From NCBI GenBank assembly GCA_027459725.1, contig DAIDHK010000002.1, positions 35,752-99,751 on the forward strand: DNA of 64,000 bases, given 5' to 3'. Position numbers and translations under genes: made by a program. Below, in pieces: positions 4,301-43,040 of the stretch. The stretch is from Candidatus Levyibacteriota bacterium (lineage in GTDB: Bacteria; Patescibacteriota; Microgenomatia; Levybacterales; UBA12049). Numbering within the stretch: position 1 is the stretch's first letter; each line of letters starts with the position of its first letter. The notes under the pieces were generated by a model. That model saw only the letters and a list, made by a program, of their open reading frames with translations, ran no database searches and was not told where the DNA came from.

Positions 4301-5182
4301 TTACAAGCTATGTACTGCCGGAATAATTTTTTCACCAAAAATTCTGATAGGCTCAATCTCTTCAACATTTCTAATGCCGAAGATAACATGTGAAACCCCA
4401 AATTCTTTGAGATGCTTACACTTTTCGATTGCATCTTGTACATTTACTTTCCCATTCTCCGGTCTTATCTGTTCAAGCACTGTAATCTCAATATCATTAA
4501 AATCACGACCTACATCTTGACAATGTTTTTTTAGAACATCTATCTTATGTTTCAATTCCTCATCACCCGATCTGGCAAACAGATTACAAGCATCAGCATA
4601 CTTCGCAACTAATTTTAAGGTTTTTTGTTCACCACCACCACCAATCAGAATAGTTGGATGAGGTTTGGATATTGCTTGCGGGTAATTCATGGGCCACTTT
4701 GCATTCACATGCCTACCCACAAATTCTTTATCATCTCCTTTCCACATCTGTAATGCCATTTGCAATGTATCTTCCAGCCTCTCAAATCTTTCTTTCAAAG
4801 GAGGAAATGGGAAACCTAAAGCATTGGATTCTTGCTCATTCCAGGCTGCGCCTATTCCCATATATGCTCTCCCGTTACTTAAGACATCAAGAGTAGTGAC
4901 TGCTTTTATAAGCAAAGCTGGATGACGATAAATTACTCCAGTTACCATCGTTCCTAATTTGGTATTTTTTGTTAAGCCAGCAAGATAACCTAATGTAGTA
5001 TATGCTTCCAACATAGGCTCTTGCGGTTCACCTATATGCTGAATCTGAAAGAAATGATCCATCACCCAAATACTATAAAAACCAGCTTTATCTGCAGTAG
5101 TTGCTATTTCAGCTAATTTCTTACTAATATTTTTATTTCCCCCTTCCCAGGTAAAACGATTAATCTGTAACCCTATTTTCAT
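4301..5182 (-). CDS. Luciferase-like monooxygenase (LLM) family oxidoreductase, probably F420-dependent
   Basis: 293 aa. TIM-barrel LLM features (WVMDHF, GIGAAW, ILIGGGG). Adjacent to cofD and cofE in a co-directional operon. Confidence 0.7.
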   Translation of the reverse strand: MKIGLQINRFTWEGGNKNISKKLAEIATTADKAGFYSIWVMDHFFQIQHIGEPQEPMLEAYTTLGYLAGLTKNTKLGTMVTGVIYRHPALLIKAVTTLDVLSNGRAYMGIGAAWNEQESNALGFPFPPLKERFERLEDTLQMALQMWKGDDKEFVGRHVNAKWPMNYPQAISKPHPTILIGGGGEQKTLKLVAKYADACNLFARSGDEELKHKIDVLKKHCQDVGRDFNDIEITVLEQIRPENGKVNVQDAIEKCKHLKEFGVSHVIFGIRNVEEIEPIRIFGEKIIPAVHSL

Positions 5183-5210
5183 AATTTCACCTCCTTCCCA
5201 AAAATATTAA

Positions 5211-6131
5211 TTATTCAATTTTTATTGTCTTTTGCGCAAGTGATCTTTTAACGTCCAATGTTTTCATTATGGTATTAGTGACTATAACTTCTATATTCAT
5301 TTTCTCAATATCAACCTTTTGATCTTTATCTTTCTCATCAATGACAATAGTATCCAAAAAATCTTTATAATACTCTGCCACACCGTTTGCAGAAACTTGC
5401 ATACCCATACTCCTCATCATCTTGTCCGCTGGTCCTTTAATAGTCATACCTCCAACAATCGGACTAACTGCTATCACCTTGGCTTGAGTTTTTTTTAATG
5501 CGTCCTTGATCCCTTCAACCGCTAAAATACTACCTATACTTACTAAGGGATTACTTGGAGCTATGAGAACTTTATCCGCTTTTATAATAGAATCCAAAAC
5601 ACCCGGAGCTGGTTTTGCTGCTGTTATACCTAGAAACTCGATTCCATGTACTTCATCTTCCGTTTGGTTTTTTACCATATATTCTTGAAAATGGATTTTC
5701 CCTTTTGGAGTTAAAATGTACGTAGAAACAGGATCATCACTCATGGGTAATAACTTAAACTTTAATCCATAATTGTCTAAAATTATTTGAGTAACTTTAG
5801 TTAAACTTTTTCCTTTTTTCAATATGTCAGTACGCAAAATATGGGTGGCAAGATCTTTATCACCGATTTTAAACCAGTCAGCATATCCCATCTTCGTGAG
5901 CTGTTCCATTGTACAAAACGTATCATTTTTTATCCCCCAGCCGGTAGTTTCATTAACCACTCCCGCTAAGGTATACGTAACAATGTCTAAATCGGGTGAT
6001 ACATGCAGACCATAGAATTCTTTATCATCGCCTGTGTTTCCGATGACAATTAAATCTTCTTCATCAATTACTTGTACAACGCCCTGTAAAAATCTCGCTG
6101 CACCCACACCACCTGCTAATACTGTAATCAT
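5211..6131 (-). CDS. cofD: 2-phospho-L-lactate transferase CofD (F420 biosynthesis)
   Basis: 306 aa. N-terminus MITVLAGGVGAARFLQGV...VIGNTGDD is typical of the CofD/UPF0052 family. Adjacent to cofE. Confidence 0.75.
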   Translation of the reverse strand: MITVLAGGVGAARFLQGVVQVIDEEDLIVIGNTGDDKEFYGLHVSPDLDIVTYTLAGVVNETTGWGIKNDTFCTMEQLTKMGYADWFKIGDKDLATHILRTDILKKGKSLTKVTQIILDNYGLKFKLLPMSDDPVSTYILTPKGKIHFQEYMVKNQTEDEVHGIEFLGITAAKPAPGVLDSIIKADKVLIAPSNPLVSIGSILAVEGIKDALKKTQAKVIAVSPIVGGMTIKGPADKMMRSMGMQVSANGVAEYYKDFLDTIVIDEKDKDQKVDIEKMNIEVIVTNTIMKTLDVKRSLAQKTIKIE

Positions 6132-6136
6132 AATAT

Positions 6137-6898
6137 TTAACGAAACATATCGGTATTCGCACTACGGATTAAATCTTGACCTGTTTTATTAGCTGATATA
6201 AAGTTATATCCCCTTATAAGTGCTACTGGCACTTTTTCTGTTTTGCCCATCACAAGTTCAGCTGCAGCTGCCAGTTCATCAGCCGCAGCTATAATGGTTG
6301 CTTGTAAAAATTGTCCGTTAGTATCCTGCTTACCCCGATAGTCACAGATCGCTTGCATACCAGAAACGCCTATCGCATTATTAACTTGACCTTCTCTCCA
6401 GGGCCTACCCCACGTATCAGTTATAATTACAGCTAATTTAAGATGTTGTCCATTTAAGTAAATAAGTTTTTTTCGAATATCATCTGCTGAACGATCAGGA
6501 TCTTCTGGCAAAATAGATAGTATTTCACTGTCGTCTAAGTTTGAAGCATCTACACCTGCATTGGCACAGATGAATCCCTGTTTGGTTTCACAAATTAATA
6601 CATTATGATCCATTCGTACTATCCTTTTAGTTTGCTGTAAAACTACCTCAATATGGCGTGGATCTTTGTTTGCTTTTATAGCAATTTGTCTGGCAAATTC
6701 GGAAGGAATTATTGTCTTCAAATTAATAATTCTACCTTCTGCCTTGGAAATAATTTTTTGTGTAATAACGATAATATCACCAGCTTGTAAATTAAGATCC
6801 TGTTTTTGCAGTGCAGAATAAATAATATCTGCTATCGAGTCCTTAGATTTAATATTCTTAATATTTCTAATAGGAATGATTGTTAAAGAAGTTGTCAT
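6137..6898 (-). CDS. cofE: Coenzyme F420-0:L-glutamate ligase CofE
   Basis: 253 aa. DIIVITQKIISKAEGR ... ANAGVDASN motifs of the CofE family. The stop/start overlaps the upstream LLM gene (ATGA), suggesting translational coupling. Confidence 0.75.
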   Translation of the reverse strand: MTTSLTIIPIRNIKNIKSKDSIADIIYSALQKQDLNLQAGDIIVITQKIISKAEGRIINLKTIIPSEFARQIAIKANKDPRHIEVVLQQTKRIVRMDHNVLICETKQGFICANAGVDASNLDDSEILSILPEDPDRSADDIRKKLIYLNGQHLKLAVIITDTWGRPWREGQVNNAIGVSGMQAICDYRGKQDTNGQFLQATIIAAADELAAAAELVMGKTEKVPVALIRGYNFISANKTGQDLIRSANTDMFR

Positions 6899-7881
6899 AG
6901 AACTTTTAAACTAGGTAACACTTTTGTACCCAACATTTTAATAAGTTCCTCCTGACGATTATTAGAAGTCGTTTGAATAACTACTGTATCGACTGTCAAC
7001 TTTGTGATTAATGGAGAATATACTTTTATATAATCCTCTGCTGATGAAAGAATAGAATACTTGCTTAAGATTTCTTCCCTAGGCAAATCGTCTGCTTCCT
7101 CTTGTAATAATTTCGGTTCAACTATCGTACTTCTGTGCGGCGCGCGTAAACCTCTCCAAGGACCTAATGCATTCCATGCTTCTTGATTATCGTCAGCAAA
7201 AACACTCCAATGAGTGGCAACTAAGCCAAAACCTATTCTACCTAATCCACTTGCTTTCTCGCTTGCTGGTTGAACAAGTTCGTTCAAAGTATCCTCAACG
7301 TTTTTTACACTGCATATTAAACCATCTGAATACTCAGCTGCCAGTAATGCTGATTTATGCCCTCCCGCAGCTAATAAAATGGGGACTTTATGCAACGGTG
7401 GACTATATAGTTTCAGCTTGTCCGCTTTATAAAATTGACCGTTTTCGTTTAGTTCTTCTCCATCTAACAACTTTCTCATTATTCTAAGAGCTTCCTTCAT
7501 TCTTGCTGAACGCTCTTTATAATTTGGATAGGTATAACCAAGCGGAACCTCATTAATTGCTTCTCCCGTTCCCACTCCTAAAATAAACCTTCCATGAGAT
7601 AAACGGTCAATAGTCGCAGCAGCTTGAGCAACAACTGCCGGGTGATAACGAAATAGAGGAGTTACTACACCCGTCATTAAATCTATCTTTTTGGTTGAAA
7701 CTGCTATGGCTCCCAAAGTTGAAAAAGCGAAACCAGCTGCAGATTGATCATCCACCCATGGATTAAAATGTTCTGAAACAAAAACTCCATCAAATCCCAC
7801 ATTCTCGGCAAGAACTGCATGTTTTACTAAATCTTCAGGTTGAAATTGCTCATGGCCACAAAAGTAATAAATTTTTGCCAT
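6895..7881 (-). CDS. LLM-class F420-dependent oxidoreductase, Fgd (F420-dependent glucose-6-phosphate dehydrogenase)-like
   Basis: 328 aa. N-terminus YYFCGHEQFQPEDLVKHAVLAENVGFDGVFVSEHFNPW and GVGTGEAINE resemble the Fgd family. Confidence 0.65.
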   Translation of the reverse strand: MAKIYYFCGHEQFQPEDLVKHAVLAENVGFDGVFVSEHFNPWVDDQSAAGFAFSTLGAIAVSTKKIDLMTGVVTPLFRYHPAVVAQAAATIDRLSHGRFILGVGTGEAINEVPLGYTYPNYKERSARMKEALRIMRKLLDGEELNENGQFYKADKLKLYSPPLHKVPILLAAGGHKSALLAAEYSDGLICSVKNVEDTLNELVQPASEKASGLGRIGFGLVATHWSVFADDNQEAWNALGPWRGLRAPHRSTIVEPKLLQEEADDLPREEILSKYSILSSAEDYIKVYSPLITKLTVDTVVIQTTSNNRQEELIKMLGTKVLPSLKVL

Positions 7882-7993
7882 AGTCTAGCTTATCATTTAT
7901 ATAAAAATAATAACTGAATGTAAAGCAAGAATTATGCAAGAAACTCAGATTTATATTTCAAAAATATTCTGTTATACTCATTTCTGATTTGAT

Positions 7994-9511
7994 ATGAAAG
8001 TTCCTAAAAGAGTAATTCCCTCCACTATGGCCTCTCAGCACCCAGACCATGCGGATAAACCATATTGGTACCATAAGCACTTTATTGATGTCCATGCTGA
8101 ATCTGAAGAGTGTTTTAGAATGTTTTCTGAACTTGGAATAGATGAATATAAATGGGATTGGGAAGGAAAATTAGTAGATGAATCGGTTATGGAAAGAATG
8201 CTTGGTGAGCATTTCGATTTTTTTAAACGTTATCCACTTGGCGAAAAAAAATTTATAACATTTCGTTTACCAAATCCTAAAGTTGAAACAGAATTCCGGC
8301 TGGGCAGAGCTTTTCTGGGAATATTAAGTGCTGCAGCCATGGCTAAAAAAGTTGGTTTTGTGCACGCCCCTCTTTTTGAAGTAATTCTCCCAATGACTGA
8401 AACTTCTGAAGAGATGTTGGACATACAAAGTGCATTCCAGGAAATTAGTGGTCTAAAACACAAATTATATAAATTAGACAATAACATATTGGATAACATT
8501 GAATTAATACCTTTATTCGAACAGGTACAAACAATTATTAATTCCGATACGATTTTAAAGGAATATATTGAAGGATATAAGAAAATGTTTAAAAGTAAAC
8601 CTGAATATATGCGTCCTTACATAGCCCGCTCAGATCCAGCTCTCAACTCAGGATTGGTTCCTACAGTATTAGCTATAAAGATTGCTTTATCAAAATATAA
8701 AGAATTGACCAAACAACTTGATATCCCTTTCTATCCAATTATTGGCACTGCGGCTTTGCCTTTCCGTGGTGGATTAACTCCAGATAATGTTGAGTCTTTT
8801 GTTAGAGAATATAAAGGAATTAGAACAGTTCTTATCCAAGGAGGATTTCGTTACGACTACCCCAAAGATCTTGTTATCTCTGGTATTAAGAAACTTGATA
8901 CTTTATTAAGTAAACAAGCTGCTGTTGATGTTCCCAAAGTCGATGAGAAAGAAATTCAACACATCATCCCTTTTTTTGAGACATATTATAGAAAAACAGT
9001 AGAAGAAATAGCACCTGTTATCAACCAGCTTGCCTCTTTTCTACCAAAACGACGAGAGAGAGTACAACACATCGGACTGTTTGGATATTCTAGAGGTTTA
9101 GGAAAAGTTTCTCTGCCCAGAGCTATTGGTTTTACAGGAGCGCTTTATTCAGTTGGAATCCCGCCAGAATTAATAGGCACTGGTCGAGGCTTACGAATTA
9201 TTCATTCACTTGGCAAACAAAATTTAATAGATAGATATTATATAAACTTTAAAGCAGATATTATAAGAGCAGGCAAATATTTAAACAGGGAGAATCTAGC
9301 TGACTTAACACAAAATTCTCCTGTTTGGGGAGAAATTATTGATGACATTGATGCATTAGAAAAATATTTAAAGATTGATTTGGTACCAGTTACTAAAGAA
9401 GAAAAAGAACATCAAAAACTGACATCAAAAATCTACACAAATCTTAATAAAGGAGGAGATTTTCAAGACCTTATAGTAAAAGCTGGTATTCTTCGTAAAA
9501 GTCTCGGATAA
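7994..9511 (+). CDS. ppcA: Archaeal-type phosphoenolpyruvate carboxylase (PpcA/PEPcase_2 family)
   Basis: 505 aa. N-terminal IPSTMASQHPDHADKPYW matches the conserved MSTQHPDN start of archaeal-type PEPC. The size (~500 aa) also fits. Confidence 0.7.
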   Translation: MKVPKRVIPSTMASQHPDHADKPYWYHKHFIDVHAESEECFRMFSELGIDEYKWDWEGKLVDESVMERMLGEHFDFFKRYPLGEKKFITFRLPNPKVETEFRLGRAFLGILSAAAMAKKVGFVHAPLFEVILPMTETSEEMLDIQSAFQEISGLKHKLYKLDNNILDNIELIPLFEQVQTIINSDTILKEYIEGYKKMFKSKPEYMRPYIARSDPALNSGLVPTVLAIKIALSKYKELTKQLDIPFYPIIGTAALPFRGGLTPDNVESFVREYKGIRTVLIQGGFRYDYPKDLVISGIKKLDTLLSKQAAVDVPKVDEKEIQHIIPFFETYYRKTVEEIAPVINQLASFLPKRRERVQHIGLFGYSRGLGKVSLPRAIGFTGALYSVGIPPELIGTGRGLRIIHSLGKQNLIDRYYINFKADIIRAGKYLNRENLADLTQNSPVWGEIIDDIDALEKYLKIDLVPVTKEEKEHQKLTSKIYTNLNKGGDFQDLIVKAGILRKSLG

Positions 9512-9515
9512 TAAA

Positions 9516-9989
9516 CTATTCATGATTCTTTGGCCATGTATCCATAACTTGACGCAATATGGCAAATTCACCTATGTGATATGATGTGTGATCAATTGCT
9601 AAAAGAACTTCATGTAAAAATGTCTGTCCGTTACCGTTTGGAACTTTAGCTTCCAGATCTAAATCTTCCTTGTTTAATAAATCGACAATTTTATTTAAAT
9701 CAGTTTCATATTCCACTGTTGTTTTTTGCCAGTCATTAGCCGTAGATCTTTTATCTCTTGTAGGCCAATAATCTTACGGCCAATTTAATTCTTTATAATG
9801 CTTGGCTGTCATAAATTCTAATAAATCTTTCTGAGTACGACGAATATGTTCCAGCAAATCCCAAGGAGAATAAGCCACATTGGGAGGAGTATTATTGATC
9901 TTACCCAGGGGAAAATCCTTTATTGCATCTATAAATGACATATGTGCTTGAGAGGTGGTAAGAAAAGAAATCAACTCCTTACGTATCAC
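9516..9989 (-). pseudogene. DinB/YfiT-like (DinB_2 superfamily) gene interrupted by an in-frame TAA
   Basis: Track ORFs 9774..9989 and 9516..9716 lie in the same frame (both end coordinates are 0 mod 3). They are separated only by a TAA at 9774-9776. Translation continues sensibly across it: ...KELNWP*DYWPTRDKRSTANDWQKTTVEYETDL... Confidence 0.6.
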
Positions 9990-18226: not shown

Positions 18227-18965
18227 ATGCAAAAAAGAAGCAAGATCATAGTTAGCGCTCACGAACTAAATAACTACGTGTTTTGCAAACGAGTATGGTG
18301 GTTAAGATTTCATGGTTTTGATCAGGAATCTAACAAGTTAGAACTTGGTACACTAAGACACGATCGTTTAGTATGGCAAGCGCTAATATCACGTAAAATA
18401 TTTATTGTGGGTTTCATACTCTTAATTATTGGCCTTGTAATTCTTGTTTATGCTTTATTATCTAATCTCAATTTATAACATGAATCCTCTCTTATTTATC
18501 TCATTTATCATTATAATATCTGGTGTAATACTAATTTTTGTTTTCAACTTTTTAGAAAATATACTTGGATCCTTGACTGGTAAAATTATCTACCATGATG
18601 CCACTCAACTTCCGGGGAAGACACTAAGAGCTAAAACTTTGCCCCTAATTGGTAAACCAGATTATATCTTAAAAGAAAACGGAGAATACTTACCTTTGGA
18701 ATTTAAAAGTGGAAAAACACCAAAACACCCATATTCTAGCCATAAAGCACAACTTATGGCTTATTGCCTTCTGATAGAAGAAAATTATCATCATCGTCCT
18801 TCTGTTGGTATTTTAAAATACCCTCAAAAAGAATTTAGAATTAAATATACTATCGAAGAAGAATCTTTAACAAGACGATTAGTCAATGAAATAATACATT
18901 TAAAAATAAGTGGTGAAGAACCACATTGTGATCACCCTCAACATAACGTTAATCTAATTGATTAA
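18227..18965 (+). pseudogene. Cas4/RecB-like PD-(D/E)xK nuclease (DUF83-like), split into two overlapping frames
   Basis: ORF 18227..18478 carries the Cas4 N-terminal NNYVFCKRVWWL (YxxCxRxxWL) motif. ORF 18444..18965 carries LIGKPDYILKENGEYLPLEFKSGK (motifs II/III), QLMAYCLL (QxxxY) and a C-terminal EPHCDHPQH. The ORFs are in different frames with a 35-nt overlap inside a hydrophobic stretch. No CRISPR array is nearby. Confidence 0.5.
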
Positions 18966-21297: not shown

Positions 21298-24200
21298 GTG
21301 TACATAATAAATTTAATACTTCAGATTATTATGTGGCATTTAAGATACTTAGTTATAGTTTTCATTTTTAGTCTTTTTTTTCTGTTAAATTCATCTTATG
21401 CATTTGCGACTGATGGATATTTTGTAATTGGAACGGGTGCAGGCGGGGGTGGAGCTGGAGGTTCCACAGGAGCAACCGGAGGTAACGGCGGAAACGCGGA
21501 TGTAACTATAAACCTAGCCACTAGTTCAGCAAATAATGTAATTTTTGGCAACGGAAGTGGCGGTGGGGCAGGTGGCAGATCTATTGGGTTCACCCCGGAT
21601 GTACGTGGGGGACATGGGGGTAGTGGCAATAACACACTTATAGGGGGATCTGGCAATGATATAATTTTCGGCCACGGATTTAATGGCAGAGACACCTCAG
21701 ATGGAGCATATTTTGCTGGCAATGGGGGTCTGGGTGGAGGAGGAGGCGGTGGTGGCGGCGGTGGATTTGGTATTTCTCCAGGTGGTGCAGGAGGTGGTAT
21801 ATGTGGGGGTGGTGGCGGAGCAGGGACTGATAACGGTGGCGGCGGTGGAATTCTAGTTACATGTAATGGAGCTAATATAGGAGGTAATGCCAATTACAGC
21901 TATGGTGGTAATGGAGGAAACTCTGGATATGATTGGCTAAACAGCCAGGGACTGGGTGGTACATATTCTAGCTACAATGGAGGAGGAGGAGGAGGATTTG
22001 GAGGAGCTACAGGAGGAACCGGATCTACCCCAGCAGGTAATGGTGACACCAAACAACACTGGTACTATGATGCGAATGGTTTAATTTATAAATACTTTAC
22101 TTTATCTGTATTACAGAACATTATGACCAACTACCCTAATTATGGTACTGGAAGCGCCACCATTAACGGTAAAGGAGGAAGTAATGAATTATATGGGCTT
22201 GGTACTGACACTACATTTATTATTGATTCAGCTGATAATGCAACTCAGGATAGAATTTGGGATTTTCATGGTAACGATAAACTATTGTTAGAAACAAATG
22301 GTCAAACAGTGGCAACTGTTGACGTAAATCATATAGTTTCAGGTGCTACTACTGGCGATTATGGATCAGGCGTCGCCAACAATGATACTCAATTTACTTT
22401 TGGAAATACCACAGTTGATCTGATAGGAGTAACATATTCTTTAAGCGCTAGTCCTAATGGAACTGTTAATGCAGTTAACCATCCTCCTACTATCTCATTA
22501 AATAGTACACCCTTAGCTTATACTCCTAGTGCAAGTGCAACTCAACTTGACTCTTCCGGATCTGTCAATGATCCAGACGGAGATAGCAACTGGAATGGTG
22601 GAACGCTGGTGGCCCAAATAACATCTAACTCCATTAGCCAAGACACATTATCCCTAAGCGGGACTAATATTTCCATAGATGGGACGATATTGAAATATAA
22701 TGGTAACCCTGTTGGTGCTATCTATCCCAGTGGCGGTTCTGTAACTGGCAATGGAATATTAACCTTAACTTTTGATAGTGGGGCTACTAATGCCATTGTC
22801 CAGGATATGTTGCAAAATATACGATTTTATACAAATACAGCTGGAACTTATAATCGCATTGTGACTGTGACTGCAACCGATTATGCGGGTGCATCTGCAT
22901 CGGCATACCGGGAAGTCGATGTTGCCGGCGCAGGATCTATTACACTTTATACAGTAAACGCAAATGCCGCTGTAGGAGGCTCAATAAGTCCCACTAGCTG
23001 GAATGTTGTTAGCGGCAGTACTTATCAGTTCAGTATCACACCATCCACTGGATATAGTATCGGCTCTGTGACAGGCTGTAGCGGCTCAATCAGTGGTAAT
23101 ACATATACCACAGGAAATATAGGCTCAGCCTGTGACATTTCAGCCAGCTTTACCCCCAATACTTACACTATGGATTTCAACAGCCAAGGAGGCAATTCTG
23201 TGAGCTCTATCTCTCAAGGTTACAATTCATCATTGACATTGCCAAGCGCTACAAAAGGGGGTTACACATTGTCTAGCTGGAATACAGCCCCAGACGGTAG
23301 TTTAACTTCGTACTCTCCTGGATCAAGCATCAATATGCCCTATAATGGAATTACTCTTTACGCACAATGGGTCATCGAAAATACATCTTCCAACAGCAGC
23401 TCATCAAGTAATAATTCAAATTCCATTAATAGTACTAATCCACCTGCATGTTCTGAAGCCATTCCTACCGGCACTCCTAATATTTATGAATTGAATCCCA
23501 CCACTAATTCAGTAATACTGTATTTTACTCCTGTTTCGAATGCTAATAGTTATTATATTCGCTATGGGACTGATTCCAGCGAGAATCAATTTGCTACTTC
23601 ATTTTCTGATTCAGATCATAGTGGTGCGGTGAGTTTTACCATAAACGATTTGCTACCTGGTTTAACATATTATTTTTCTGTCAGAGGTGGAAATGGCTGC
23701 GCACCAGGAGATTGGTCAACTACATCTTCAGTACGAACAACTTCTATTCAAAGTCTTTCTACCGGGCTATCGGCTAGTCCATCAAATGTCATTCCCACTC
23801 CCGATCAAAACAAAAAAATCAATATTGTTTCTGAAAAGCTGACGACTCAACCCTCAAGTGTTTGTTCATATACTGTACAGTCCGGAGATAGCTTGTGGGA
23901 AATTGCTCAAAATAAACTCAACAATGGTACTCAATACCAAATCTTGGAAAAATTAAATAATTTAACTTCACCTTTAATCTCTTCCGGGCAAGTTTTAAAA
24001 TTACCATGTAATAATCAGCCACAAACATTAGTCCAGGCACAAAATGAAATAAAGCAAACAGGTATAGATTTAAATGTTCAGGTTTTGAGTATGGCTGGTA
24101 CTCCAATGTCAGGTGTCTGGGTAACTCTTCATTCCAAGGTACAGAAAGCCTTAACTGATAAAAACGGAGTTGCACACTTTATAAATATAGATACTGGTCA

Positions 24201-24426
24201 CCATCAGGTAATATTGGCTTACAATGGATTTAACGGTGAACAAAATATTTCTATTACCGGTAAACAAAAACAACAGACTTTAACATTAAGAGTACAGCTA
24301 AATAATACAACACTAACACCTTATGTATGGGGTTTGATAGGCGCTCTAATATCTATAATAATTGTTTTAGTATTAATAATATTCTTACTTTTTAAGAAAA
24401 AACACAAAACTAAAAAGATTGAGTAA
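21298..24426 (+). CDS. Large multi-domain cell-surface protein (Gly-rich RTX-like repeats, InlB B-repeats, Fn3-like, LysM, C-terminal TM anchor)
   Basis: 1042 aa. Signal peptide. About 200 codons of GGxGG repeats including the RTX-like nonapeptide GGSGNDIIFG. A divergent InlB B-repeat (VNANAAVGGSISP...GYSIGSVTGC) and a Listeria-Bacteroides repeat (GYTLSSWNTAPDGS...TLYAQW). LysM (YTVQSGDSLWEIAQ...). C-terminal helix LIGALISIIIVLVLIIFLLFKKKHK. Confidence 0.75.
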   Translation: MYIINLILQIIMWHLRYLVIVFIFSLFFLLNSSYAFATDGYFVIGTGAGGGGAGGSTGATGGNGGNADVTINLATSSANNVIFGNGSGGGAGGRSIGFTPDVRGGHGGSGNNTLIGGSGNDIIFGHGFNGRDTSDGAYFAGNGGLGGGGGGGGGGGFGISPGGAGGGICGGGGGAGTDNGGGGGILVTCNGANIGGNANYSYGGNGGNSGYDWLNSQGLGGTYSSYNGGGGGGFGGATGGTGSTPAGNGDTKQHWYYDANGLIYKYFTLSVLQNIMTNYPNYGTGSATINGKGGSNELYGLGTDTTFIIDSADNATQDRIWDFHGNDKLLLETNGQTVATVDVNHIVSGATTGDYGSGVANNDTQFTFGNTTVDLIGVTYSLSASPNGTVNAVNHPPTISLNSTPLAYTPSASATQLDSSGSVNDPDGDSNWNGGTLVAQITSNSISQDTLSLSGTNISIDGTILKYNGNPVGAIYPSGGSVTGNGILTLTFDSGATNAIVQDMLQNIRFYTNTAGTYNRIVTVTATDYAGASASAYREVDVAGAGSITLYTVNANAAVGGSISPTSWNVVSGSTYQFSITPSTGYSIGSVTGCSGSISGNTYTTGNIGSACDISASFTPNTYTMDFNSQGGNSVSSISQGYNSSLTLPSATKGGYTLSSWNTAPDGSLTSYSPGSSINMPYNGITLYAQWVIENTSSNSSSSSNNSNSINSTNPPACSEAIPTGTPNIYELNPTTNSVILYFTPVSNANSYYIRYGTDSSENQFATSFSDSDHSGAVSFTINDLLPGLTYYFSVRGGNGCAPGDWSTTSSVRTTSIQSLSTGLSASPSNVIPTPDQNKKINIVSEKLTTQPSSVCSYTVQSGDSLWEIAQNKLNNGTQYQILEKLNNLTSPLISSGQVLKLPCNNQPQTLVQAQNEIKQTGIDLNVQVLSMAGTPMSGVWVTLHSKVQKALTDKNGVAHFINIDTGHHQVILAYNGFNGEQNISITGKQKQQTLTLRVQLNNTTLTPYVWGLIGALISIIIVLVLIIFLLFKKKHKTKKIE
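21430..22030 (+). repeat. GGN codon-repeat tract (poly-Gly coding) inside the surface-protein gene
   Basis: Runs of ggt/ggc/gga/ggg codons. It is locally GC-rich and strand-asymmetric, and it creates a spurious Pro-rich antisense ORF. Confidence 0.7.
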
Positions 24427-25041: not shown

Positions 25042-26466
25042 TTATTTAAAACTAGATAACTCTCCCCAACGCTTACCGGTCTTAACTTCAACAACTAATG
25101 GAACAGCCAAAGGATAAACACAACAAAGAACATCTTTTATTTCATTAATTACTTTCTTCATTCTGTGATTATCCTTCTCAGGGATTTCAAATACCAAATC
25201 GTCATGAATCTGAAGTAGCAAAAAAACATCTGGATATATATCTAGAATCTTTTCTTGGACATCCACCATAGCTTTTTTCATGAGATCAGCTGCAGATCCT
25301 TGTACCGGGTAATTCATTAATACACGTCTCATATTGTTACTGATAAATTTCTGACCAGGAAATTCGAAGACATAGCGTCGACGGCCAAGCAATGTTTCGA
25401 CTACTCCATTGAGTTTCGCATTTTTTAAGTACTCATCATAGTATGTCTTGATACTGGGATAAGAGATATAAAAATTTTTAATAAACTGTGCCGCATCAGC
25501 TTCGGAAATATGTAATCCTGTACTCATCCCGTAGCTACTCATACCATAAATGATGCCAAAATTAATTGTTTTACCAACTGCTCTTTGTTGCTTGGAGACC
25601 TGTTCGTAAGAAATATTAAATAATTTGCTGGCTGTCAGTGTATGTACGTCTTGGTTATTTTTAAATGCTTTAATTAATTCTTTTTCATCTGCTAAATGCG
25701 CCAGAACTCTTAACTCCTGCTGTGAATAATCAAAAGAGACTAAATTCATTCCCTCGGAAGCAACAAAACATGATTTTATTTCCAGTCCAATCGGAGAAGA
25801 TACAGGAATATTTTGCAGATTCGGATTAGATGAAGCTAAACGGCCAGTGTTTACATAAACCTGGTTATATGTAGTATGCACACGATCATTTTGATCTGTT
25901 TTTGTTATTAAACTTTCTACGTAAGTCGATCTTAGCTTAGTTAATTCTCGATAACTCAGTATATGTGAGATTATAGCAAACTGATCATTATATAATGATA
26001 ATTCTGATTCATTGGTTGCATATTTGCCCGTTTTAGTCTTACCTAATGGCACTCCGACTTTTTCAACCAAAAAATGTCCCAACTGAATAGGTGAATTAAT
26101 ATTTAATCCCCCACCTGTTTGCTTATTAATCTCTTCTTCTAAGTCTAAGATCATTCCCTCAATCTCTTTTCCAACTTGCTTTAATTGTTTGGTATTAAGT
26201 AGTATTCCTCGTTGCTCCATCTTAAATAGAACTTTAGCTAGAGGCATTTCAATCTTATTAAATAATTTTTTAAGTTGAGAATTTTTGTCAAGTAGTTGTT
26301 CTTGAACACGAGCCAATTCCAATAAGTTATCAACTTTGTATTTTTTAAAGGTTTCTTCTTGAGTACCAATAGAATGACCATCACTAAGCAAAGCCTCGGC
26401 AATATAGCAATCAAAGTTTGCCGAAAAATCTTTGGAAGTTTTGCTATCCCAGATTGGTTTAAGCAT
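25042..26466 (-). CDS. polA: DNA polymerase I, polymerase domain only (no 5'-3' exo and no complete 3'-5' exo domain)
   Basis: 474 aa. Begins near the ExoIII-like DCYIAEAL motif, followed by IEMPLAKVLFKMEQRGI. Family-A motifs RRxxK (RAVGKTINFGIIYG), QIHDDLVFE and YPVQGSAAD are present. An in-frame TGA lies 8 codons upstream of the ATG. Confidence 0.8.
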   Translation of the reverse strand: MLKPIWDSKTSKDFSANFDCYIAEALLSDGHSIGTQEETFKKYKVDNLLELARVQEQLLDKNSQLKKLFNKIEMPLAKVLFKMEQRGILLNTKQLKQVGKEIEGMILDLEEEINKQTGGGLNINSPIQLGHFLVEKVGVPLGKTKTGKYATNESELSLYNDQFAIISHILSYRELTKLRSTYVESLITKTDQNDRVHTTYNQVYVNTGRLASSNPNLQNIPVSSPIGLEIKSCFVASEGMNLVSFDYSQQELRVLAHLADEKELIKAFKNNQDVHTLTASKLFNISYEQVSKQQRAVGKTINFGIIYGMSSYGMSTGLHISEADAAQFIKNFYISYPSIKTYYDEYLKNAKLNGVVETLLGRRRYVFEFPGQKFISNNMRRVLMNYPVQGSAADLMKKAMVDVQEKILDIYPDVFLLLQIHDDLVFEIPEKDNHRMKKVINEIKDVLCCVYPLAVPLVVEVKTGKRWGELSSFK

Positions 26467-30062: not shown

Positions 30063-30989
30063 ATGAGCTGGAACGAAGTTTTAAATGATTTTATTTTACA
30101 AGCACAACAAAATAACCTAAAAACTTCAACGTATCCAAAAGAGTGGGATAGCTTAAGATTGAGAATATCTTTTGGTATGGGAGCACCTGCAAGAATTCCT
30201 TGGGTTGCATTTGTAGCTCCTGATATGGAAGTTAGTAAAGGATTTTATCCGGTTTATTTGTATTATAAAGACTCAAATACCCTAATACTCTCGTACGGCA
30301 TAAGCGAAACAGAGGAATTTGGGAAATCTTGGCCTTCGGAAATAATGAGCTCCGCACAAACTATAACAGCTTATTTTGATAAAAAAGTTGCCAGATACGG
30401 AGACTCATTTGTTTTTAAAGCTTATAAAGTAAATGTTAAGGGAAATAAGGTTGAACTTGCTTATCCGGAAAGTAAAAAAGTTGCAAGTTCACAAGATATT
30501 GAATCAGATTTAGATACTCTTTTAGATTATTACAAAAATGCAGTTAACCTTAGTTCAAGTAGAATATCTCCTGAACTAAGTCAGGGTTTATTTTATATGG
30601 AAAAGCAATTAGAGGATTTTCTGATTGCTAACTGGCCACATACTGAACTTGGAAAGAAATTAGATTTAATAATTGAAGAAGGAGAATTATTAAGCCAACA
30701 ATATAAAACTGATTTAGGACCAATTGATATTTTAGCAAAGGATAAAAAAACCGGAAGTTATGTTGTAATTGAGCTTAAAAAGAACCAAACCAGTGATGAC
30801 ACCATTGGACAATTAGCTCGATATATGGGTTGGATAAGACTTAATAAGAAAGATGATAAAGTAAGAGGCATTATTATCGCCGGTCAATATGACAAAAAAT
30901 TAGATTATGCTTTAAAAATGGTTCCCAATACAGAGGTGTTTATTTATGAGGTTGATTTTAAATTAAACTCTTTTGAAAGAGTGTCATAA
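30063..30989 (+). CDS. DUF3578 (McrB-N-like modified-DNA recognition domain) fused to a NucS/DUF91-like PD-(D/E)xK nuclease domain; candidate modification-dependent (type IV-like) restriction endonuclease
   Basis: 308 aa. N-terminal half LRISFGMGAPARIPWVAFVAPDMEVSKGFYPVYLYYKDSNTLILSYGIS matches the DUF3578/MrcB_N pattern (SFGxG...IPWIAF...KGxYxVYLF...LSL). C-terminal half GPIDILAKDKKTGSYVVIELKK...IGQLARYMGW...VRGIIIAG matches the NucS C-terminal nuclease core (GxIDIL-x-D...VVIELK...Q...Y...RGILIA). Preceded by a ~360-bp AT-rich intergenic region. Confidence 0.6.
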   Translation: MSWNEVLNDFILQAQQNNLKTSTYPKEWDSLRLRISFGMGAPARIPWVAFVAPDMEVSKGFYPVYLYYKDSNTLILSYGISETEEFGKSWPSEIMSSAQTITAYFDKKVARYGDSFVFKAYKVNVKGNKVELAYPESKKVASSQDIESDLDTLLDYYKNAVNLSSSRISPELSQGLFYMEKQLEDFLIANWPHTELGKKLDLIIEEGELLSQQYKTDLGPIDILAKDKKTGSYVVIELKKNQTSDDTIGQLARYMGWIRLNKKDDKVRGIIIAGQYDKKLDYALKMVPNTEVFIYEVDFKLNSFERVS

Positions 30990-40996: not shown

Positions 40997-42259
40997 CTAA
41001 TCTTCCATGGTGGAGGATACAATTTCTTGAAATTTAGTATAATATCTAGTTTTATCTGGAATATTAGATTTTATCATAGTATTAGGTCCCACTATCGTAT
41101 TATTTCCGATAATAGAGCCTGGTAGAGAAGATACATTTATACCAATTTTGATATTATCTCCGGCAATCACCCCCAAATTTTTAACTCCTGTGTTAAGAAC
41201 ATTTTCACCAATTTTAACAATAACTTCTTGTCGATCAAATCTTTTGTTGCCTGTGTTAAAACCAGCACCTACTCGACAATGTTGTCCAAAAACAGAGTCT
41301 CCGACAAATCCGGAATGAAAATGGGTATCTGAACTAATAATCGAATTACGTATCTCCATATTTGCACCTGCAATACAATTCTCACTTAGAATTGTACCTT
41401 CGCGTAGGATAGCATTATTTCCTACTACTGCCCTTCTCCCTATATAAACGGGCCCTTTCAAAACCGCGTTTTCCATTATTTTCGCACCTTCTTCAATTAT
41501 CACATCTCCATCTATAGTTGAATTTACTGCTATTTCTGCGGTATTAGAGATATATCTTTTTAAAGAATTAAATAAATATTTTTTTACCGAGAATATATCC
41601 CATGGGTATTTCAATGAAATACTCTCTTGATGAGTTTCAACATATGAAACAAGATTATTTTTAGCAAAATTAGAAAGTGAGGATTCAAAGTTATAATGTT
41701 CTAATTTGCTTTGTTCTAAAATTTCCAAGAATTTTAAAGGTATTAAATATATTCCTACTAATCTTAAGTTTGAAAGCTGGTCTTCTTGTCTAGGTTTTTC
41801 TATGATCTGTAGAACTCTATTATGCTCAACTTTTAAAACTCCAAACTTTGATATATCTCGTTCTTTTTTTGCTAATAGAACAGTTTGATCTTTGTGTACT
41901 TTTTCATTGATCATTACTTCTTTGAATTCCGGAAAGTCAACGTGATGAGCATGCATGACAAAAAATTCATCCTCTAAAAAATCTCTGGCTTGCAATAAAG
42001 CATCTCCCATTCCTAATGCTTGTGGTTGTTCTACTATTTTTATCTCTAACTGTAAATCCGGACATTTACTCATTAACTCTTTAAATTGTGCTGCTTTTTT
42101 AACAACAACCACCACATTTTTTATTCCGCTACGTTGTATCGACTTAAGGGTATGATAGATAATTGGTTTATCGAACAAAGGGAAAAAAGATTTATGTCCA
42201 TAATTTAAATAAGGATAAAATCTGCTTGAGTTTCCCGCTCCCAATAAAACTACTTGCAT
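40997..42259 (-). CDS. Bifunctional sugar-1-phosphate nucleotidyltransferase / hexapeptide (LbH) acyltransferase, archaeal-GlmU-like
   Basis: 420 aa. N-terminus VVLLGAGNSSRF (NTP-transferase fold). The C-terminus has left-handed beta-helix hexapeptide repeats. Confidence 0.6.
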   Translation of the reverse strand: MQVVLLGAGNSSRFYPYLNYGHKSFFPLFDKPIIYHTLKSIQRSGIKNVVVVVKKAAQFKELMSKCPDLQLEIKIVEQPQALGMGDALLQARDFLEDEFFVMHAHHVDFPEFKEVMINEKVHKDQTVLLAKKERDISKFGVLKVEHNRVLQIIEKPRQEDQLSNLRLVGIYLIPLKFLEILEQSKLEHYNFESSLSNFAKNNLVSYVETHQESISLKYPWDIFSVKKYLFNSLKRYISNTAEIAVNSTIDGDVIIEEGAKIMENAVLKGPVYIGRRAVVGNNAILREGTILSENCIAGANMEIRNSIISSDTHFHSGFVGDSVFGQHCRVGAGFNTGNKRFDRQEVIVKIGENVLNTGVKNLGVIAGDNIKIGINVSSLPGSIIGNNTIVGPNTMIKSNIPDKTRYYTKFQEIVSSTMED

Positions 42260-42269
42260 ATCATTAAAA

Positions 42270-43040
42270 TTATTTTTGATTATATACTTTTTGTGCCATT
42301 TCTAAATCAGCGAATGTATTGATACCAAACCAGGGCAGTTTTCCTGCACGCAAAATACCAACCTTAAAATTGCTTTTGAAAGCTATCTCGATTAAATCTG
42401 TCAAGTAGTACTCTTGGGACACCGAATTAACTTGTATAACTGGCAAATATTTCTGCAAGAATTGTTTATTAAAAATATATAGACCAGAATTAATTTCTTT
42501 TATTTTCTTCTGTTCTTCGGTTGCATTCTTCTCTTCCACAACTCCAATAATTTTGTTTTTTTTCCTCAAAATACGTCCTAATCCCTTAGGATTTTCTACT
42601 AAAAAACTAACTAGGGTTAATACATTTTTTTCTTTATGATGCTGATTTATGAATTCTTTTAGCAAGGTTAATGGATACATAGATGCATCATCACCATAAA
42701 TAACTATGACATCAGAAATGCCTTTAGAGACTTTCTCAAACCCTAGTTGCGTGGCATGACCAGTACCCAACTGTTGTTCCTGATCAGCAAAGATAACTTG
42801 AGTACCTTGTAAAGACGTAATCACTGAATCTCTAGCATAGCCAACGACTACAATAATAGATCCTAGGTACAAATTTTCAAACATCTTTACAATTCGTAAT
42901 ATAAGAGGCTGATCGTTTAAATAATGGGTCACCTTATTTTTATTTTCTGAATGCATTCTGGTACCTTTACCAGCTGCTAAAACAACAGCAGCAATATTTG
43001 AATAATTTTCCATCCTATTATATAAATTTAAAACGATCAT
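42270..43040 (-). CDS. Stand-alone GlmU-N-like UDP-GlcNAc pyrophosphorylase domain protein
   Basis: 256 aa. AAVVLAAGKGTRM and QEQQLGTGHA match the GlmU uridyltransferase-domain motifs. No LbH domain. Confidence 0.6.
   Translation of the reverse strand: MIVLNLYNRMENYSNIAAVVLAAGKGTRMHSENKNKVTHYLNDQPLILRIVKMFENLYLGSIIVVVGYARDSVITSLQGTQVIFADQEQQLGTGHATQLGFEKVSKGISDVIVIYGDDASMYPLTLLKEFINQHHKEKNVLTLVSFLVENPKGLGRILRKKNKIIGVVEEKNATEEQKKIKEINSGLYIFNKQFLQKYLPVIQVNSVSQEYYLTDLIEIAFKSNFKVGILRAGKLPWFGINTFADLEMAQKVYNQK

Follow-up and report, generated by a model that had tools for sequence, protein, structure and literature searches.

The stretch of DNA analysed here (the window) covers 64 kb, about a third, of a 204,891-bp contig, and carries on its minus strand, from 7881 down to 4301, the four co-directional and tightly packed genes that the earlier note had described. 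These genes, together with the spacer and the intergenic region on which parts of the argument depend, are listed below.

6895..7881, minus strand: LLM1, an FGD/fHMAD/Adf-family F420-dependent luciferase-like dehydrogenase of 328 aa, operon gene 1 (TIGR03557, PF00296)
6137..6898, minus strand: CofE, a single-domain F420-0:L-glutamate ligase of 253 aa (TIGR01916, PF01996)
5211..6131, minus strand: CofD, a 2-phospho-L-lactate (or enolpyruvyl) transferase of 306 aa (TIGR01819, family PF01933)
5183..5210, minus strand: cofD-LLM2 spacer of 28 bp with the Shine-Dalgarno sequence GGAGGTG, equivalent to the cofC slot of Saccharimonadales-type operons
4301..5182, minus strand: LLM2, an Rv1855c-family F420-dependent LLM oxidoreductase of 293 aa, the last gene (TIGR03560)
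7882..7993, no strand: AT-rich divergent intergenic region of 112 bp between LLM1 and an archaeal-type PEPC, the presumed operon promoter region

LLM1 and cofE share a 4-bp ATGA start/stop overlap at 6898..6895, as originally reported, while cofE and cofD are separated by a gap of 5 bp and cofD and LLM2 by 28 bp, with the strong Shine-Dalgarno sequence before LLM2. All four genes score above curated NCBIfam cutoffs in profile searches, which bears out the identities first proposed for them (an LLM oxidoreductase, cofD, cofE and an Fgd-like gene). A consensus promoter scan of the divergent intergenic region found one weak plus-strand site, and promoter-like sites are overall rarer than in shuffled sequence, so the placement of the operon promoter follows from the gene layout; no terminator after LLM2 was found in the promoter/terminator scan. 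Judged from its sequence, the module is an intact F420 locus predicted to be transcribed as a unit.

Identity of the biosynthetic enzymes

The assignment of CofD, which might have been confused with a YvcK-family paralogue, is settled by a score of 365.3 bits against TIGR01819 (cutoff 257.45) compared with 39.6 bits against the YvcK model TIGR01826 (cutoff 196), and the paralogue is thereby ruled out. The window protein matches the M. mazei CofD 3C3D with 265 bits and 41% identity, and the mycobacterial FbiA with 195 bits. The metal ligands of FbiA are Asp45 and Asp57 (PMC7253369); Asp35 and Asp47 of the window CofD align with them and are invariant in four CPR CofDs.

CofE likewise withstands the profile test, scoring 267.9 bits against TIGR01916 (cutoff 180.65) and matching profile positions 4-218 of the 218 in PF01996, and its residues 6-253 align end to end with the A. 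fulgidus CofE 2PHN at 38% identity. Profile scores rule out a folate ligase. No FMN nitroreductase domain of the FbiB C-terminal type, or adjacent to the ligase, is present in the window CofE or in the 5-bp gap between cofE and cofD.

The two luciferase-like oxidoreductases

LLM1 matches PF00296 with E = 1.2e-48 and is 36% identical to the M. tuberculosis Fgd1 (3B4Y). Because it exceeds the cutoff of the F420_G6P_family model TIGR03557 by only about 7 bits (217.6 against 210.4, a marginal match) and falls below that of the FGD equivalog TIGR03554 (183.8 against 420), its substrate is uncertain. In Fgd1 the catalytic residues are His40, Trp44 and Glu109, and the phosphate pocket is formed by Lys198, Lys259 and Arg283 (PMC5352752). 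The catalytic residues correspond to His38, Trp42 and Glu107 of LLM1, and the pocket positions to Asn194 (with Lys193 adjacent), Arg250 and Lys274, so that the pocket is basic but rearranged, in an arrangement that is kept in all the CPR-context orthologues. LLM2 scores 281.5 against TIGR03560 (cutoff 231.4) and is better conserved than the other three genes, with 88% identity to the orthologue in the closest relative and a dN/dS of about 0.03.

Host and inheritance of the module

That closest relative, locus L001, comes from a MAG labelled Candidatus Levyibacteriota and was the only return of a scan of a genome collection with CofD; this label, the synteny of L001 with the window and the similarity of the two IleRS proteins make the CPR-like host that had been proposed probable. 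A metagenome scan with CofD returned three short contigs at 54-57% identity and no further members of the clade, in which cofD is kept in three members (the window, L001 and P0002). The order PEPC / LLM1-cofE-cofD-LLM2 / NUDIX / IleRS is the same in the window and in L001, an independent assembly in which the cofD-LLM2 spacer measures 64 bp. Identity to L001 is 71-88% for the F420 genes and 79% for IleRS; within the module CofD (74%) and CofE (71%) are the least conserved, the other two genes being at 79-88%. The dN/dS values of the F420 genes against L001 lie between 0.03 and 0.14, that of cofD being about 0.07 with synonymous sites saturated at this distance, and GC3 is 23-29% in the F420 genes and 27% in IleRS. 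The F420 genes are ameliorated to the GC3 of the host and under purifying selection, and the combination of host-like GC3 with a divergence from L001 like that of housekeeping genes indicates that the module is old and has been vertically inherited in the clade.

Further along the same window lies a bacterial dcw cluster, and the host is bacterial. The three genes to which the earlier note had drawn attention are indeed present: an archaeal-type PEPC (TIGR02751, 474 bits) that adjoins LLM1 divergently, an IleRS of type 2 with a DUF5915 C-terminus, and an alpha2 GlyRS (the dimeric form, NF003211). The archaeal flavour which they, together with the F420 genes, had been taken to suggest is not supported, nor is an archaeal donor, since the window CofE and CofD are only 38-41% identical to the archaeal enzymes, compared with 57-63% for Ktedonobacteria-like ones, and GC3 is host-like. 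PEPC was also considered as a part of the module and rejected, because its adjacency is kept only in L001 and not in L010, L012, L015 or other loci; it is treated here as a neighbour. Scans of viral contigs with CofD and LLM2 alignments found nothing and so provide no evidence for a phage vehicle, and tRNA and Rfam scans of the window found no tRNA or rRNA gene that could serve as a direct taxonomic marker.

Pathway genes that are absent

The absence of cofC and of an FO synthase from the window, claimed at the outset, was confirmed. Searches by tblastn with the proteins of relatives found no match in the window for cofC, a nitroreductase or an FDOR, three Ktedonobacteria-like nitroreductase (NTR) proteins among the queries included, and no radical-SAM FO synthase is present among the window ORFs of at least 300 aa. 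Nor was cofC found in the 21-kb L001 locus, where tblastn also found no nitroreductase. The gene tables of seven CPR-context loci, with flanks of about 10 kb each, contain no FO synthase, a dehydro-F420 reductase is absent from the CPR loci examined as well as from the 64-kb window, and no transporter for FO or F420 was identified.

CofC makes a labile product that probably reaches CofD by channelling (PMC8764529, PMC6450877), so that the absence of cofC is a bigger problem than that of an FO synthase. Since cofD is conserved, the lability and probable channelling of its substrate suggest that a CofC-like activity exists.

A CPR operon type and its variants

The order LLM1-cofE-cofD-cofC-LLM2 is found at the Saccharimonadales-labelled loci L012 and L013 (GCA_964464865.1 and GCA_035479415.1) and at L010, on a scaffold of 1.14 Mb; in all three, cofC (192-197 aa, PF01983) lies between cofD and LLM2. 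The window and L001 have the same order minus cofC. Locus L015 reads PNPOx-LLM1-cofE-LLM2 and has no cofD, L014 (putatively CPR) has LLM1-LLM2 alone, and L016 and L017 (also putatively CPR) have only divergent LLM pairs. Judged by this gene order, the window module represents a cofC-less variant of an operon type found in CPR, a point that the earlier note had missed.

Among the best 120 matches of LLM1 and of LLM2, 20 contigs, paired by their length, are putatively shared, five of them verified by gene context, and both proteins are 63-70% identical to proteins on contigs that are labelled Patescibacteria or Saccharimonadales or that have the operon context. Trees were built by neighbour joining from Kimura-corrected p-distances with sampling biased to best hits, and only well-supported nodes were used. 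LLM2 groups with the operon-context copies and those labelled Patescibacteria/Saccharimonadales in a clade of 83% bootstrap support, apart from the Anaerolineae-labelled ones; the CofE tree has the same CPR-context grouping with weak support, and CPR monophyly is not resolved in the CofD and LLM1 trees. The CofC of L012, which is not a window protein, has Gly at the diagnostic Ser162 position, which rules out the 3PG-F420 route for this enzyme and makes it one of the 2-phospholactate/PEP type.

Proposed function and alternatives

The reading that we consider probable is that the window encodes a module for completing and using F420 which depends on external FO and on a CofC activity supplied elsewhere. 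For the remaining steps the organism would probably rely on other parts of its genome or on cells nearby, and FO scavenging is plausible. FO would be obtained from F420-producing neighbours or hosts, and 2-phospholactate or PEP would be activated in trans by a CofC-type gene elsewhere in the genome. CofD would then join FO, the deazaflavin, to its phospho-acid linker, and CofE would add the glutamate tail, trapping the cofactor by glutamylation for use by the operon itself. LLM1, as an FGD-family dehydrogenase, would reduce F420 by hydride transfer, the donor most likely being a phosphorylated sugar, and LLM2, the second predicted F420-dependent oxidoreductase, would presumably consume F420H2; direction is predicted for both enzymes and substrate for LLM1. 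As for ancestry, cofC would have become absent from the operon in a Levyibacteriota-like lineage, and the other four genes would then have been inherited vertically under purifying selection.

It is also possible, although unlikely, that the organism has a complete de novo pathway of which the window shows the clustered part, while cofC, FO synthase (cofG/cofH or fbiC) and perhaps a reductase lie at other places in the genome. The window takes in roughly a third of a single contig, scattering of F420 genes is common (cofC is apart from cofD in L003 and L006), and, since cofD is intact and under purifying selection, the cell must itself produce the labile substrate of CofD. Against this, FO synthase is missing from all seven CPR-context loci and their flanks, and the graded series around a constant LLM pair, running from cofC, cofD and cofE through cofD and cofE, and cofE, to none, resembles erosion and not scattering, the direction of loss being read from five kinds of locus rather than from a species tree. 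To our knowledge, moreover, CPR genomes generally lack the riboflavin-pathway precursor supply. In another alternative, the biosynthetic half of the module would itself be decaying, cofD being functionless after the loss of cofC, with F420 or F420-0 imported and only CofE, for extending the tail and retaining the cofactor, and the two LLM proteins mattering. The retention of cofE in L015, which has no cofD, the LLM-only loci L014, L016 and L017, and the fact that CofD and CofE are the genes least conserved relative to L001 are in keeping with such decay. We nevertheless judge it very unlikely, because cofD is full length, keeps both metal-binding aspartates, has a low dN/dS at saturated synonymous divergence and persists in the window, L001 and P0002, and a useless gene would not last that long in a streamlined genome.

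A recent horizontal gain from archaea, or archaeal-like content more generally, could be argued from the higher score of CofD against the M. mazei enzyme than against FbiA, from the single-domain form of CofE that is shared with archaea, and from the adjoining archaeal-type PEPC, and a binning or assembly chimera would be a related explanation. Identity to the bacterial homologues (CPR and Chloroflexota) is 52-70%, however, well above that to the archaeal enzymes; GC3 is host-like; the genes are contiguous with IleRS and the dcw cluster in the same window; the synteny recurs in an independent assembly; and PEPC is unlinked to the module in other CPR loci. These observations leave both explanations very remote and effectively refute them.

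A wider proposal, which we offer only tentatively, is that CPR bacteria may run a scavenging-based deazaflavin economy, in which FO, F420-0 or F420 is taken from producing hosts or neighbours (Actinomycetota, Chloroflexota, methanogens). Under it, the series cofC-cofD-cofE, cofD-cofE, cofE and none would represent stepwise outsourcing around the constant LLM1/LLM2 pair, the CofD of the window lineage would have no cognate CofC and would rely on a non-orthologous guanylyltransferase or on a novel donor, and in some Saccharimonadales (L010) the module may feed a minimal chain from F420H2 through quinone to cytochrome bd.

Significance

The bacterial F420 lineages named in a 2021 review are the Actinobacteria, the Chloroflexi, a few candidate phyla and some Proteobacteria, and CPR/Patescibacteria are not among them (PMC8498797). 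A term search gave no occurrence of F420 in a 2025 paper on Saccharimonadia metabolism or a 2026 review of the phylum, and we found no paper that describes F420 in CPR. If several lineages of CPR do share a conserved F420 module, organisms believed to have minimal redox metabolism would gain a low-potential hydride carrier, and the graded gene content would offer a specific, testable example of cross-feeding of a cofactor and of dependence on a host. The range of hosts used by CPR might follow the distribution of F420 producers. The lack of a dehydro-F420 reductase is relevant to whether, in organisms other than mycobacteria, the pathway draws on 2-phospholactate or on PEP as its phospho-acid.

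Comparison with known systems

The mycobacterial system (FbiA, FbiB, FbiD and FbiC with Fgd1) follows the same logic, in that tail synthesis is coupled to an FGD-type F420 reductase, and the metal ligands of FbiA and the catalytic His, Trp and Glu of Fgd1 are kept in the window proteins. It differs in that FbiB is a two-domain ligase-reductase whereas the window CofE has a single domain, in that the PEP/dehydro-F420 route is obligatory and FbiC is present in mycobacteria, and in that LLM1 fails the FGD equivalog model and has the pocket position of Lys198 shifted by one. The archaeal CofD and single-domain CofE, which have no fused reductase, align over their full length with the window proteins; a 2-phospholactate route with no requirement for a reductase would fit the window layout (PMC8764529). 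Archaea do, however, encode CofC and CofG/CofH, of which the window has none, and the archaeal enzymes are the more distant ones, the window being bacterial with bacterial nearest relatives.

Outside the clade of the window, the nearest CofD and CofE are those of Ktedonobacteria-like Chloroflexota (57-63% identity), where CofE is again single-domain. Their clusters consist of cofE, a stand-alone nitroreductase, cofD, in some cases an SDR gene, and cofC, and the nitroreductase (PF00881), whose gene follows cofE and precedes cofD, presumably acts as dehydro-F420-0 reductase; a reductase of this kind has been described for Actinobacteria and Thermomicrobia (PMC8764529). The window has neither the nitroreductase nor cofC, whereas these clusters lack the flanking LLM1/LLM2 pair and have a GC content of 51-53% compared with 35% for the window. 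At L003 and L006, other genes lie between cofD and cofC.

The Saccharimonadales-labelled operon, which is known from database annotation only and for which we found no published description, has the same gene order and orientation as the window module, with LLM1 and cofE abutting or overlapping slightly, by 4 bp in both L010 and the window and by 1 bp in L012. Its LLM proteins are orthologous to those of the window (63-66% identity, with LLM2 in the same clade), its CofE is likewise single-domain, and no reductase or FO synthase lies nearby. The CofD and CofE proteins are only 52-56% identical between the two, the window host probably belongs to another CPR class (Levyibacteriota/Microgenomates-like), and L010, unlike the window, has cydAB and a Ddn-like FDOR adjoining the operon. 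Where this operon carries cofC, the window has its 28-bp spacer.

Gene content of the F420 operon

The operon consists of four minus-strand genes, in which two luciferase-like F420-type oxidoreductases, here called LLM1 and LLM2, enclose cofE and cofD.

Genes of the F420 operon (window coordinates, strand, gene and ORF length)
7881..6895, minus strand, LLM1, 328 aa
6898..6137, minus strand, cofE, 253 aa
6131..5211, minus strand, cofD, 306 aa
5182..4301, minus strand, LLM2, 293 aa

The end of LLM1 and the start of cofE share an ATGA at 6898..6895, cofE is separated from cofD by 5 bp, and the 28-bp spacer between cofD and LLM2 contains a GGAGGTG Shine-Dalgarno sequence. In profile searches CofD scored 365.3 bits against TIGR01819 (cutoff 257.45), CofE 267.9 bits against TIGR01916 (cutoff 180.65), LLM2 281.5 bits against TIGR03560, the Rv1855c family (cutoff 231.4), and LLM1 217.6 bits against TIGR03557, “F420_G6P_family”, a marginal pass over the cutoff of 210.4, so that the four gene assignments made from sequence alone in an earlier note are confirmed by matches above curated thresholds. 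The possibility considered there that CofD is a YvcK paralogue is rejected, as the YvcK model reaches only 39.6 bits against 365.3 for TIGR01819; LLM1 as a strict FGD equivalog falls below threshold (183.8 bits, cutoff 420). No match to CofC, FO synthase, nitroreductase or FDOR was found among the ORFs of the 64-kb window, which for cofC and FO synthase agrees with the same note, and the window has neither a trace of, nor room for, a dehydro-F420-0 reductase gene.

Inheritance and origin of the module

The window carries the bacterial genes rsmH, PBP, murE, murC, murA, glmU, glmS, mraY, ftsW, murG, ftsA and ftsZ, and its host is bacterial; tRNA genes and Rfam families gave no match in the window. 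The nearest relative outside the source genome is another Candidatus Levyibacteriota contig, DAIDHL010000001.1 (locus L001), with which the window has in common the gene order PEPC / LLM1-cofE-cofD-LLM2 / NUDIX / IleRS and protein identities of 88% for LLM2, the best conserved of the four module genes, 86% for PEPC, 79% for IleRS and LLM1, 74% for CofD, 71% for CofE and 68% for NUDIX. At 23-29%, the F420 genes have the same GC3 as IleRS (27%), and their dN/dS is 0.03-0.14 (Nei-Gojobori, with synonymous sites saturated). Since synteny is conserved, GC3 host-like and dN/dS low, the module is neither a chimera nor a recent import, and it has been vertically inherited and kept functional within this clade of the candidate phyla radiation (CPR).

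The earlier note had proposed a CPR host and an archaeal flavour for these genes. The syntenic Levyibacteriota relative bears out the former; the latter is not upheld, because archaeal identities of 38-41% stand against 52-70% for bacterial homologues. CofD shares 41% identity with both M. mazei CofD and M. smegmatis FbiA, and CofE 38% with the A. fulgidus enzyme. The best CofD matches beyond the clade itself are 59-63% identical, the named ones being from Ktedonobacteraceae, while the best matches of LLM1 and LLM2 (62-70%) include proteins labelled “Patescibacteria group bacterium” and “Candidatus Saccharimonadales bacterium”, with 20 putative shared contigs among the best 120 matches of each.

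In rough NJ trees, the window copy of LLM2 groups at 83% support with every CPR-labelled or operon-context copy, in a clade that leaves out the Anaerolineae-labelled copies, and CofE gives the same grouping weakly (95/200 replicates). The window clade of CofD has 100% support and lies beside, not nested in, a Ktedonobacteria-like clade; the tree does not resolve how these two clades and the Saccharimonadales copies branch relative to one another, and the LLM1 tree has no resolved branching. Operon architecture and the LLM2 tree argue for a single CPR-type module. As regards its source, the sequences are equally compatible with a Chloroflexota-like donor and with shared ancestry.

Arrangements among CPR and related loci

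Arrangements of the operon in the window and related loci
L012 and L013 (Saccharimonadales-labelled assemblies GCA_964464865.1 and GCA_035479415.1, n=2): LLM1-cofE-cofD-cofC-LLM2
L010 (1.14 Mb scaffold, GC 35%): cydA-cydB-LLM1-cofE-cofD-cofC-(hyp)-FDOR_A-LLM2
Window and L001 (Levyibacteriota-like clade): LLM1-cofE-cofD-LLM2
L015, 5063-8111: PNPOx-LLM1-cofE-LLM2
L014, 758-2607: LLM1-LLM2, overlapping
L016, 8973-10876: divergent LLM pair without cof genes
L017, 2240-4175: divergent LLM pair without cof genes

By this comparison the window operon corresponds to the Saccharimonadales-type operon minus cofC, with the gap at the 28-bp spacer. The LLM1/LLM2 pair is retained with ever fewer cof genes, cofE alone in L015 and none in L014, L016 and L017; in L015 a PNPOx-like FDOR gene lies directly upstream of LLM1.

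At L010:7689-15883 the F420 operon directly follows the cytochrome bd oxidase genes cydA and cydB, and a Ddn-like F420H2-dependent quinone reductase (PF04075) lies downstream in the operon region. This layout hints at a minimal chain that may run from sugar phosphate through F420H2, quinone and cytochrome bd to O2.

How the module would work

A check of LLM1 for Fgd-type residues, which had been suggested earlier, found the catalytic Fgd1 residues His40, Trp44 and Glu109 retained and, at or beside the phosphate pocket of Fgd1, the three basic residues Arg250, Lys274 and Lys193, the last displaced by one position; both sets are kept in every CPR-context orthologue. Given these catalytic residues and the basic pocket, the most likely function of LLM1 is that of a dehydrogenase which reduces F420 with a phosphorylated sugar as substrate; LLM1 is not demonstrably a glucose-6-phosphate dehydrogenase. 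We infer that LLM2 would be a consumer of F420H2; to our knowledge, its Rv1855c family (TIGR03560) has no known substrate. CofE would lengthen the glutamate tail, and this glutamylation, we infer, would also trap the cofactor in the cell.

CofD keeps the FbiA metal ligands Asp45 and Asp57, as Asp35 and Asp47. The CofC product (LPPG, EPPG or GPPG) is labile, and its channelling to CofD has been proposed (PMC8764529, PMC6450877). From this lability and the long-term conservation of cofD, a CofC-type activity would be expected to exist in the organism, presumably supplied by a gene elsewhere in the genome. No dehydro-F420 reductase was found in any CPR locus examined, and in the CofC of L012 the Ser162 position, diagnostic of 3-PG use, is occupied by Gly; both features together would be in keeping with an archaeal-like route through 2-phospholactate, or with dehydro-F420 as the product. 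Neither the 64-kb window nor the related loci, some 130 kb of sequence, yielded an FO synthase, and FO scavenging is therefore plausible.

Neighbouring genes and other features of the window

An archaeal-type PEPC (7994..9511; TIGR02751, 474 bits) is divergent from the operon; the Levyibacteriota relative shares this adjacency (86% identity), and the remaining CPR loci do not. PEP is one substrate of CofC in bacteria, and a functional link through PEP may or may not be meaningful. Further neighbours are a NUDIX gene and an IleRS with a DUF5915 C-terminus. After PEPC, at 9516-9989, two consecutive short ORFs of 66 and 71 aa on the minus strand, each with GTG as start codon and neither with a Pfam match, may be halves of one disrupted gene.

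At 25042-26466 a 474-aa DNA polymerase I has the PF00476 polymerase domain without the 5'-3' exonuclease part; L015 has a 475-aa PolA orthologue near its F420 genes, 58.5% identical to this truncated PolA. Two adjoining GlmU-like genes at 40997-43040, in the peptidoglycan-precursor cluster, comprise an archaeal-type bifunctional sugar-1-phosphate nucleotidylyltransferase/acetyltransferase (TIGR03992, 295.5 against 292.1) and a 256-aa protein whose match to bacterial GlmU is confined to the N-terminal uridylyltransferase half. An orphan Cas4-like PD-(D/E)XK nuclease (18444-18965; TIGR00372, 54.8 against 65, below cutoff) and a protein that combines the nuclease domains MrcB_N, NucS_C and YhcG_C (30063-30989) are present; the annotated window ORFs gave no sign of a CRISPR array or of a cas operon. 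A 1042-aa ORF with a LysM-like C-terminal region (21298-24426) lies where the window is richest in GC (0.37-0.40, compared with about 0.35 for the window as a whole).

Comparison with known systems

In the three Ktedonobacteria-like loci (L003:6543-13709, L005:6477-9630 and L006:5390-9362; GC 51-53%), unlike in the window, cofE and cofD are separated by the gene of a stand-alone PF00881 nitroreductase, which amounts to FbiB in split form, and cofC is about one gene further, with an SDR gene just upstream of it in two of the three. The counterpart of the stand-alone nitroreductase is the dehydro-F420-0 reductase domain of FbiB (PMC6450877), and this reductase has been described in Actinobacteria and Thermomicrobia (PMC8764529).

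CPR are missing from the bacterial F420 lineages given in a 2021 review (PMC8498797), and literature searches turned up no account of CPR making or using F420. The operon type, its occurrence in CPR and its graded reduction appear undescribed. The locus would come as something of a surprise to specialists in F420 and in CPR alike, and it opens cofactor scavenging by CPR bacteria to direct test. The proteins are already correctly annotated by database pipelines and the parts are therefore known; the locus is not a new kind of system. It is a CPR-type F420 operon in a variant form that lacks both cofC and the reductase.
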